From: Eledone cirrhosa
Taxonomy: Eukaryota
NCBI GenBank assembly: GCA_964016885.1
Contig: CAXHJY010000841.1
Location: forward strand, 1-64,000
Length of the DNA stretch: 64,000 bases
Direction of reading: 5' to 3'
Shown: positions 24,130 to 30,623 of the stretch, piece after piece
How positions within the stretch are numbered: position 1 is the stretch's first letter
Layout: every line of letters starts with the position of its first letter
Position numbers and translations under genes: made by a program
Notes under the pieces: model-generated
Seen by the model: only the letters and a program-made list of their open reading frames with translations
Told to the model about the DNA's origin: nothing
Databases searched by the model: none

Positions 24130-24183
24130 GATATATAATACGATATATTAACAAATGGAAACTATATTTATAAAACCATATTT

Positions 24184-24246
24184 ATTTCATTATACATATT
24201 TCAAGGACACCAAGTTAAATTATGGTGTGCTTTCATCAGATAAAAT
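24184..24246 (-). ncRNA. Type-I hammerhead ribozyme, family H1
   Basis: Minus strand: ATTTTAT-CTGATGA-AAG.ACACCA..TGGTGT.CTT-GAAAT ATGT ATA-ATGAAAT. Confidence 0.8.
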
Positions 24247-24393
24247 ATAATATAGATCAGTTTTATAAATAAATATTGACATACCCTTAAAGAATGCGAC
24301 CATTTCTGTTGGAAGCTCCCGGATAGTCCAACAGAAATGGTCGCATTCTTTAAGGGTATGTCAATATTTATTTATAAAACTGATCTATATTAT

Positions 24394-24456
24394 ATTTTAT
24401 CTGATGAAAGCACACCATAATTTAACTTGGTGTCCTTGAACTATGTATAATGAAAT
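24394..24456 (+). ncRNA. Family H1 hammerhead with GAAA>GAAC change
   Basis: Mirror copy of 24184-24246. Confidence 0.6.
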
Positions 24457-24589
24457 AAATATGGTTTTATAAATATAGTTTCCATTTGTTAATATATCGT
24501 ATTTTTACTCCAATAAGATGTTGAGTGCTTTATATCAGTTATAAAAATATTTTCTTGTTGTATCCCAACAATTTAAATAGAACTTCTAC

Positions 24590-24667
<78 letters not shown>

Positions 24668-24766
24668 AGGGAGTGTAACTTGGAGTTACTGTAGATTCAC
24701 TCGAGTGAGCACTCGATGTTTAGGTTCACTTCTGTGATGAGGTGTAGAGCTATACAGAGTGTATTG

Positions 24767-25048
24767 TAGTGAAAAGATAACAAGGACGATTGGTTACTCC
24801 TTCATTACATTTATTGGTTGGTGACGCGCGTTGCGCCACTGATCAGCTCAAGGTTCGATCTGTATCGATCTTACCCGACTCTGTAATCTGTAGCTCGACG
24901 GACCCCTTGAAATGCTAGGTGGTCCGTCGAGTTGCAGATTACAGAGTCGGGTAAGATCGATACAGATCGAACCTTGAGCTGATCAGTTGTGCAACGCGCG
25001 TCACTAACCAATAAATGTAAGGAGTAACCAATCGTCCTTGTTATCTTT

Positions 25049-25054
<6 letters not shown>
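24767..25054. repeat. Palindrome (~135-bp arms) with a non-canonical HHR-like fold in each arm
   Basis: GGTGGT-CCGTCGA-long stem II-GCAAC GCGC GTC-AC(C/T)AACC-AATAAA; similar to the 29.7-30.0 kb element. Confidence 0.85.
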
Positions 25055-26242: not shown

Positions 26243-26680
<438 letters not shown>

Positions 26681-26683
26681 GCA

Positions 26684-26735
<52 letters not shown>

Positions 26736-26820
26736 CATATATACATACATATATATTTATTCAGGTTTGCGGTTCACCACGTGATAGAGCTGGTCAATTC
26801 CGTATGGTCAGTCTTAACAT

Positions 26821-27201
26821 AATAATTGTTTCTACTTTAGGCACAAGGCCAGCAATTACCCAGTGCATTACTGGTACTTTATTTTATCGACCCCGTAAGG
26901 ATGAAAGGCAAAGTCAACCTCGGCAGGATTTGAACTCAGATCGTAAAGGGACGTAACTATGGTGGAAAGCATGGCGTCCGACCCTCTACTGATACTGCCA
27001 ATCCAATGTAATAATTGTTTCTACTTTTTGGCACAAGGCCAGCAATTGTCCAGTACATTACTGGTACTTTATTTTGTCGACCCCGTAAGGATAAAAGGCA
27101 AAGTTAACCTCGGCAGGATTTGAACTCAGATCGTAAAGGGACGTAACTATGCTGGAAAGCATGGCGCCCGACCCTCTACCGATACTGCCAATCCACCGCC
27201 C
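26821..27201 (-). mobile_element. Two tandem SINE family A copies (26821-27005, 27008-27201)
   Basis: Two near-identical head-to-tail units with A and B boxes. Confidence 0.9.
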
Positions 27202-27580
27202 TTAATCTTAATGTAATAATATGGAGAGTACATACATATATATATATATTCACTGTTCAATAATTTACTTAACTTAAATAATCTATCGTTTACTCTGTCC
27301 TCTCTTTACAGTATTGTACAATATACACCTACTGATTGCTACTCAGTCTATTATTCCTTTATATCTTATAACAGAAGTTTTTGGTGTAAGCGGTTGGAAG
27401 CGGTGTAGTTGGATCCAGAACTTTCTATTGTGAACTTCTCTCTCTATAGCTTTCAGTCTGCATGTAAACATGTTCTCATTTAAAGCTAACTAATTTATAA
27501 ATCTATGAATGAATGTATGTATGTATGATGTACGTATGCCTGTGTGTGTGTGTGTTTGTGTTTGTATGCATATGCGCATG

Positions 27581-27797
27581 CTGCAGCTCAGTAGTTACCG
27601 ATTATGTTGATCTTTTCTTCTTTTCGGGTTATAGCTACTGTCGCTCAGAGAGTGGGATTGGCTCAGTGCACAGTCTTTCCTCACTTCTTTAAAAAGTATC
27701 TTCACGCACAGGCATTGCATGATAGAATTAATTAATAATTATTAATAATGGTATATCGTGCAATGGCCATACTCGATAAGGAGAGGGAAGCCATCAT
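27581..27797 (+). mobile_element. Repeat family B subfamily fragment, inverted relative to 26343-26543
   Basis: Reverse-complement match over ~200 bp. Confidence 0.75.
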
Positions 27798-29722: not shown

Positions 29723-29763
29723 GAAAACGAAAAATCAGTGATGCATCGGAACTTAATTTATTG

Positions 29764-29853
29764 CGTATTACAATTGTTTCCCCGGCGAACGGCTCGAGGT
29801 GCGATCTGTGTGTGGATCGACCTGACTCTGGATTCACAGGTTCTTCAGACACG
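29764..29853 (-). ncRNA. Hammerhead ribozyme with extended stem II, family H6
   Basis: Minus strand: CGTGT-CTGAAGA-A-CCTGTGAAT...GTTCG.CGGG-GAAAC AATT GTA-ATACG, then AATAAA. Confidence 0.75.
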
Positions 29854-29894
29854 TCTATTGATCCAGAAAGAGGATCTGCTCCGAAATCAATAGC

Positions 29895-29984
29895 CGTGTC
29901 TGAGGAACCTGTGAATCCAGAGTCAGGTCGATCCACACACAGATCGCACTTCGAGCCGTTCGCCGGGGAAACAATTGTAATACG
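29895..29984 (+). ncRNA. Hammerhead ribozyme with extended stem II, family H6
   Basis: CGTGT-CTGAGGA-A-CCTGTGAAT...GTTCG.CGGG-GAAAC AATT GTA-ATACG; AATAAA at 29986. Confidence 0.75.
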
Positions 29985-30130
29985 CAATAAATTGAGTTCC
30001 GATGCATCACTGATTTTTCGTTTTACATTCTATCATACTCTGCTCCGTAGGAGCGTAGAGTGCTCAACCGGCATACCACCTATGGAACCATCTTAGCTAC
30101 CATTAGACATTATATATATATATATATATA

Positions 30131-30623
<493 letters not shown>

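Follow-up and report, generated by a model that had tools for sequence, protein, structure and literature searches.

The window analyzed here is a stretch of 64,000 nucleotides (positions 1 to 64,000) of an Eledone cirrhosa contig (CAXHJY010000841.1), one of the contigs of the 3 Gb genome that was searched. Positions 24667–25054 are occupied by an insertion that is bounded by (TA)n and consists of two pLTR end pieces joined head to head (Table 1). A sequence-only reading had described a fold-back at 24767–25054 whose inverted homologous arms resemble an element near 29.9 kb and carry a hammerhead motif with the core CCGTCGA/GCAA. The arms are real, differing from each other by 5 substitutions and one 4-nt indel, and local similarity to the 29.9-kb element (family B; the present element is family A) was found. 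Both core boxes, the palindromic stem III (ACGCGCGT) with its GUC site, and AATAAA are present in the two arms. The left border did not hold, as the element reaches 24667 through a 100-nt tail on the minus-strand arm. Many genomic copies share a long end like this tail, which in L188 is in frame with the ORF start. Linked markers assign the locus to subfamily S2.

Table 1. Coordinates of the fold-back insertion and of the family-B fold-back in the window
Feature	Position	Strand	Remarks
Tail, about 100 nt past the pLTR	24667..24766	-	Matches the 5′ leader into the ORF of full-length copies; abuts (TA)n
Left arm, 5′-truncated pLTR	24767..24918	-	Begins 17 nt 5′ of C3
AATAAA	24810..24815	-	Read in the sequence
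Stem III palindrome and GUC site	24823..24831	-	Read in the sequence; identical in subfamilies S0 and S5
Core box 2 GCAA (A13C)	24831..24834	-	Private to the locus
Core box 1 CCGUCGA (U4C, A6U)	24895..24901	-	Subfamily state
Inversion junction	24919..24920	.	2 nt belonging to neither arm; set against other copies
Right arm, 5′-truncated pLTR	24921..25054	+	Begins 3 nt 5′ of C3; short end abuts (TA)n
Core box 1 CCGUCGA	24924..24930	+	Read in the sequence
Long stem II and inner hairpin (predicted)	24931..24990	+	3 private changes in the + arm
Core box 2 GCAA (A13C)	24991..24994	+	Read in the sequence
Stem III palindrome and GUC site	24994..25002	+	Read in the sequence
AATAAA	25010..25015	+	Read in the sequence
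Family-B fold-back	29725..30023	.	Canonical cores CTGAGGA at 29900 (+) and CTGAAGA at 29848 (-)

Stems I, II, and III surround the core in the type I order, with private stem changes, and the core boxes read CCGUCGA and GCAA where the type I motif has CUGANGA and GAAA. The 6-bp stem I proposed earlier (GGTGGT/ACCAACC) is rejected as a chimera of the two arms: GGTGGT occurs only in the plus-strand arm, where its first bases derive from the junction (homology begins at 24921) and the 3′ strand is ACTAACC, and ACCAACC is the stem I 3′ strand of the minus-strand arm, where the 5′ strand is AAGGGGT. Stem I of the family is 3–4 bp. Stem II as first quoted fits the minus-strand arm but not the plus-strand arm. 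Rfam matches for the window and for the plus-strand arm comprised microsatellite noise without a hammerhead, the folding of the plus-strand arm was not better than that of shuffles (z -0.89), and monomer folding barely predicted stem II in either arm.

The window holds other elements of related shape. A near-perfect fold-back of another family lies at 24137–24503, 160 nt from the insertion, with canonical CTGATGA and the palindrome ATATGTAT. A young GC-rich fold-back repeat is present at 30130–30253 and 53233–53494 (the latter with a short RT-like match at 53311–53451); it gave 67 blast matches in the loci, often adjoining stubs of Penelope-like elements (PLEs). Minimal canonical hammerhead-like motifs are found at 11183 (+) and 8313 (-), and further inverted-repeat elements at 13125–13773, 26360–27779, and 60194–60335.

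Upstream, longer family-A copies extend into an ORF that has RT and GIY-YIG motifs. In L237, an unbroken frame of 861 codons with YRDD and YIG motifs adjoins an S5-type pLTR that is cut inside stem II. The Pfam GIY-YIG profile matched L083 weakly (E 0.012) and did not match L237. There are 38 homologs of about 700 aa, the nearest named one being an octopod protein with 42% identity. The translations of L083, L186, L188, and L237 contain DKT, RWR (for RWK), a CxCX5C linker, and the endonuclease CxxC and CxH; the marks given for the Hydra clade are DKT, RWK, the CxCX5C linker, and endonuclease CxxC and CxH (PMC8557442). The likeness to this clade thus covers DKT for DKG, an RW-basic motif, the linker, and CxxC and CxH around the endonuclease E and N, as well as (TA)n targets, an inverted 5′-truncated copy, a tail, and a type I hammerhead with a short, near-palindromic stem III before the 3′ end (PMC8557442). 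(TA)n targets, pLTR, inverted copy, and tail are all present in family A. By these motifs and insertion features, the element is provisionally assigned as a Hydra-type EN+ Penelope-like element.

Differences from the Hydra clade, as far as the accessible text of its description goes, are a tail of about 100 nt instead of 30–40, a unit of about 4.5–5 kb instead of <3 kb, and a very long stem II (PMC8557442). In addition, that source calls canonical hammerheads universal in Hydra and has canonical cores in its supplement rows (PMC8557442), whereas families A and B are mostly CCGUCGA, with canonical cores only in S0 and B0. Published pLTR hammerheads likewise have a type I motif in the pLTR, a stem III palindrome predicted to act as a dimer, numerous copies, both dispersed and inverted, and high variation among families; however, the sole core variant in the accessible accounts of them is a compensated U3–A8 pair, without U4C and A6U. 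The anole Poseidon element PAc resembles the present one in its two RT start sites leading to long and short ends, its AT-rich targets, and its uncut RNA template, the likely kind of template here as well (PMC11167929). The PAc hammerhead is instead intact and protein-assisted, and its dispensability was found only in vitro, unlike the evolutionary evidence given here (PMC11167929). Inverted truncated copies, the tail, and two 3′ ends are already known for PLEs (PMC11167929; PMC8557442). A non-LTR retrozyme, which is described as non-coding head-to-tail tandem monomers with a hammerhead in each (bioRxiv 10.64898/2026.07.22.740005), was rejected, since family members occur here as scattered pLTR stubs, as inverted pairs, or at the ends of coding units. 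Taken by itself, the locus is an unremarkable dead stub of a common Penelope-like retroelement; without an ORF, and with a third core change, this copy is predicted to be inert.

The three core changes had been taken together, as signs either of a ribozyme that died before the inversion or of a natural variant. Each half of this choice is true, for different letters: A13C is decay, and U4C with A6U is inherited. A search pattern that left position 13 free had 1703 genomic matches, with GAAA in 1681, GGAA in 12, GTAA in 5, and GCAA in 5; a GCAA subfamily was therefore rejected, two of the five GCAA matches being the two arms of the present locus, and the family consensus differs from CCGTCGA/GCAA. 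(No matches were obtained with reversed control patterns, either in this count or in the CCGTCGA/CTGANGA and family-B counts below.) A rare letter is common to both arms in 19 of 76 fold-back pairs, compared with 0.9 for random pairs (some loci counting as two pairs), which indicates that the two arms were in most cases copied from a single template, or that later conversion took place. By these counts, A13C is simple decay that is older than the copying of the arms or was converted between them, and it has little bearing on mobilisation.

U4C and A6U are subfamily states. With a matched flanking pattern, the genome contains 1089 exact CCGTCGA matches and 352 CTGANGA matches, exact patterns favoring young copies, which contradicts simple decay of one copy in a family that is otherwise canonical. 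A first DNA search and a first pattern (82 of 450 with CCGTCGA) were biased in opposite directions, and the matched patterns were used instead, together with a core-blind sample of 100 arms from one contig (C1), picked by their 3′ half only. Excluding 23 truncated or unreadable arms, the 77 scorable ones comprise 51 with CCGTCGA, 18 with point derivatives that keep U6, 5 canonical, and 3 others. An ATT marker of the young subfamilies occurs in 0 of 100 canonical matches, among the matches listed. In a tree built without the core columns, canonical copies group together and variant copies form a series, and linked markers define S0 (CUGACGA), S1 (CCGACGA), and S2–S5 (CCGUCGA); the U4C-only group in family A has 53 matches. 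Arm-to-arm divergence from S0 to S5 is, in order, 8.8, 6.9, 5.5, 4.4, 5.9, and 2.2% (63 pairs, a few non-independent, including 9 in S0, 12 in S1, 14 in S2, and 14 in S5), and S0 differs from S2–S5 with p=0.0009. The subfamily that divergence marks as youngest, S5, carries CCGUCGA, and U4C with A6U is, on this sequence record, a natural inherited variant. In contigs from one sample, possibly the source of the assembly, that do not clearly span the locus, no other letter exceeds 5% at S5-reference positions 4 and 6; this observation is given no weight here.

Among 20 long loci, the tandem units L241, L245, and L246 (pLTR-ORF-pLTR) have a CCGTCGA-type core in both pLTRs. From S2 to S5, the ORF shows pS of 0.27 and dN/dS of 0.19 (474 codons, S2 being represented by 2 copies only), compared with a dN/dS of 0.73 for private ORF changes. 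Complete units and purifying selection on the ORF indicate that the variant lineage is autonomous and long-lived. It is this lineage-wide success of U4C with A6U, and not the death of one ribozyme before an inversion, that supports the earlier suggestion that cleavage may not be needed for mobilisation. Insertions seem to be longer in the youngest subfamilies: arms extending >100 nt upstream of the core number 60 of 95 in S4–S5 and 12 of 60 in S2.

The direction of the changes is less uniform. Rooting with distant families did not fix the position of the family-A root, and older-looking family-A copies have C4 in 5 of 7 readable cores (both arms of L031, L133, L159, and L335, as opposed to L103 and L165), two of these C4 cores being CCGTCGA from a search that selected that word. 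Canonical S0 may therefore be a reverted side branch, and more than one switch may have occurred at position 4. On present evidence, U6 appears derived in both families.

The stems proposed for the motif are supported by alignment, with 90% of cells paired in family A compared with 24–43% in slid controls; despite this, no covariation above shuffles was found in that family. From S2 to S5, changes occurred at 1 of 47 core and stem positions (a stem II mismatch position), compared with 11 of 84 loop and flank positions (Fisher p=0.03), and for the nine core positions alone, conservation relative to pS was not significant (p about 0.06). C3, G5, G8, A9, GAAA, and the cleavage site are conserved in families A and B, and GAAA is present in 18 of the 19 informative copies that had been selected by their 5′ side alone. 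In family B, three stem pairs change on both sides between the canonical/U4C group and the variant group. Stem II as predicted for the monomer has a mean pair probability of 0.00–0.06 in S5, compared with 0.56–0.71 in S0–S2. Neither Rfam nor a descriptor detected a second or replacement hammerhead in three full-length S5 loci.

Family B, whose ORF is about 55% identical to the family-A protein, contains the same 7-mer. In the first 100 of 844 genomic matches, cores are CCGTCGA in 79, derivatives in 6, canonical in 10, and U4C-only in 5; its U4C-only group has 64 matches, of which 52 are CCGAGGA. A flank-only tree rejects a single clade for the variant copies of both families (p-AU 3e-5). Within family B, a single long branch acquires both A6U and G7C, the 5 arms found with CCGACGA fall among the variant copies, and divergence is 3.8% in the canonical group and 3.9% in the variant group, the canonical group being no older. 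CCGTCGA shows no excess in other short-stem families (45 matches, 58 for the reversed control). U4C alone (CCGAAGA) is present in two further short hammerhead families, in 3 of 4 arms and 3 of 3 arms (loci L236, L271, and L311, and L073, L144, and L284); the window copy at 49590–49912 is canonical at 49760. In L252 (about 7490) and L253, which belong to a sister family with about 55% protein identity, the core box is CTGAAAGA, with one extra A that resembles the A6a insertion of PMC3088659.

Copies begin upstream of the motif. In family A, 5′ ends lie 24–26 nt before C3 in 20 of 60 short S1/S2 copies, and in family B, 34–38 nt before C3 in 12 of 29 short copies. Starts within 2 nt of the cut site occur in 2 of 345 arms and in none of 56 S0-assigned arms, in a sample picked mostly for motifs that lie upstream of this site, so that copies beginning at the site itself go unseen. 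Ends of this kind, almost never at the cut site, fit an uncut template. Two classes of 3′ end are seen, separated by about 100 nt. In published work, single and double mutants of the CUGA turn all had low activity except C3G/G8C (PMC9901934), and dead hammerhead mutants left the in vitro insertion of the anole element unaffected (PMC11167929). U4C is sufficient in vivo in a viroid, and A6C retains low activity (PMC3088659). These natural variants resemble the present one in altering positions 4 and 6, with activity reduced; unlike it, they are single changes in isolated RNAs, and the accessible text contains no double change, no A6U, and no fixation at high copy number (PMC3088659). On their own, PLE hammerheads are weak, and one of them depends on its protein (PMC4209133; PMC11167929).

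The low activity of CUGA-turn mutants, the 5′ ends, and the in vitro insertion result lead us to lean toward a weak or silent ribozyme: the inherited CCGUCGA hammerhead probably cuts poorly or not at all, and its fold has probably been kept for another job. The element's RT/endonuclease would nick (TA)n, and an uncut RNA starting about 25 nt before the core would be copied. Two short cDNAs of one template, one with the long end and one with the short end, would then join head to head, which would explain why both arms share the private A13C. If the template is uncut RNA, U4C followed by A6U would cost nothing or even help, and the three-way fold near the RNA 5′ end would continue to be selected, probably because it serves the element's protein as a site. 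Several observations weigh against a weak or silent ribozyme. C3, G5, G8, A9, GAAA, and the site are all kept, as in an active site; the same 7-mer in families A and B exceeds what loss of function requires; natural U4C and A6C retain some activity, and PLE hammerheads are weak alone, one of them needing its protein; the family-B canonical group is not older; and in family A, whose root the tree did not fix, the C4 of older-looking copies means that S0 may be a reverted side branch. The sampling of 5′ ends also hides starts at the cut site. Retention of the fold is also at odds with the weak prediction of stem II in S5 monomers.

The most serious alternative, which we consider unlikely on balance, is that CCGUCGA is a working core in which C4, U6, and C7 are co-adapted and support slow cleavage, aided by dimer formation or by protein, for which selection acted on two occasions. 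An identical 7-mer was reached in A and B from different canonical starts (CUGACGA and CUGAGGA), U4C-only groups occur in both, the other catalytic positions and the dimer palindrome are kept (including GAAA in the copies picked from the 5′ side), and three double-sided stem changes fall on the branch to the family-B variant. The idea of a U4–A6–U7 triple belongs to the background of the hammerhead core; no passage supporting it was found in the literature searched. A 5′-end peak at the cut site was likewise not seen, and U4/A6 double mutants are among those with low activity in PMC9901934, although that scan, in its accessible text, dealt with one type III construct and its single and double mutants. 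A match between A and B that arose without selection is improbable. It would require neutral hitch-hiking on master copies plus chance, or transfer of a short tract by template switch or conversion, as might be suggested by the joint arrival of A6U and G7C on one long branch with the CCGACGA arms nested among variants, by a stretch of only 9 nt common to A and B, and by U4C alone in the two further families. However, the variant creates CpG sites, against mutation bias, and the flank-only tree excludes transfer of a whole pLTR, if not of a 2-nt tract.

Quite improbable is the proposal that the core letters reflect a DNA-level constraint, namely an overlapping internal pLTR promoter, with the ribozyme as a bystander. 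In its favor, 5′ ends cluster at initiator-like sequences before C3 at the two distances given above. In the family-B pLTR (e.g., L269), we take the sequence 35 nt before the core, where 5′ ends cluster, to be initiator-like, and a hexamer at +28 to +33, within the 5′ strand of stem I, is presumably DPE-like. However, the core lies at +26 in A and at +36 in B from the inferred start, so that one element of fixed spacing cannot fit both, and the double-sided stem changes point to RNA structure. Post-insertion decay of one copy as the origin of all three core changes is barely tenable: it holds for A13C only, and is refuted for U4C and A6U by the exact CCGTCGA matches, which are tied to subfamily markers.

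The shape of the insertion and the presence of hammerheads in PLEs are already in print; for the CCGUCGA core in a PLE lineage, no earlier report was found. In a literature search short on subscription papers and bioRxiv supplements, no paper contained both "hammerhead" and "CCGUCGA"; with few subscription papers covered, none joined A6U with hammerhead, cleavage, and catalytic core, and none reported a PLE lineage in which a core predicted to be crippling has become fixed. In PLEs, the hammerhead may be a processing tool, a dispensable part, or a passenger (PMC8557442; PMC11167929). One genome here holds natural canonical, U4C, and U4C with A6U versions of the same motif, in dated subfamilies and in two families. 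That hammerheads have a second functional core in CCGUCGA, at which two autonomous families arrived independently because it tunes self-cleavage down or makes it protein-dependent, is a doubtful proposition, a little more so than a working core as such; if it is true, standard CUGANGA searches would miss a whole class. At stake are elements that may thrive without cutting in vivo on the one hand and an unrecognised active core on the other, and either would change the annotation of hammerheads.
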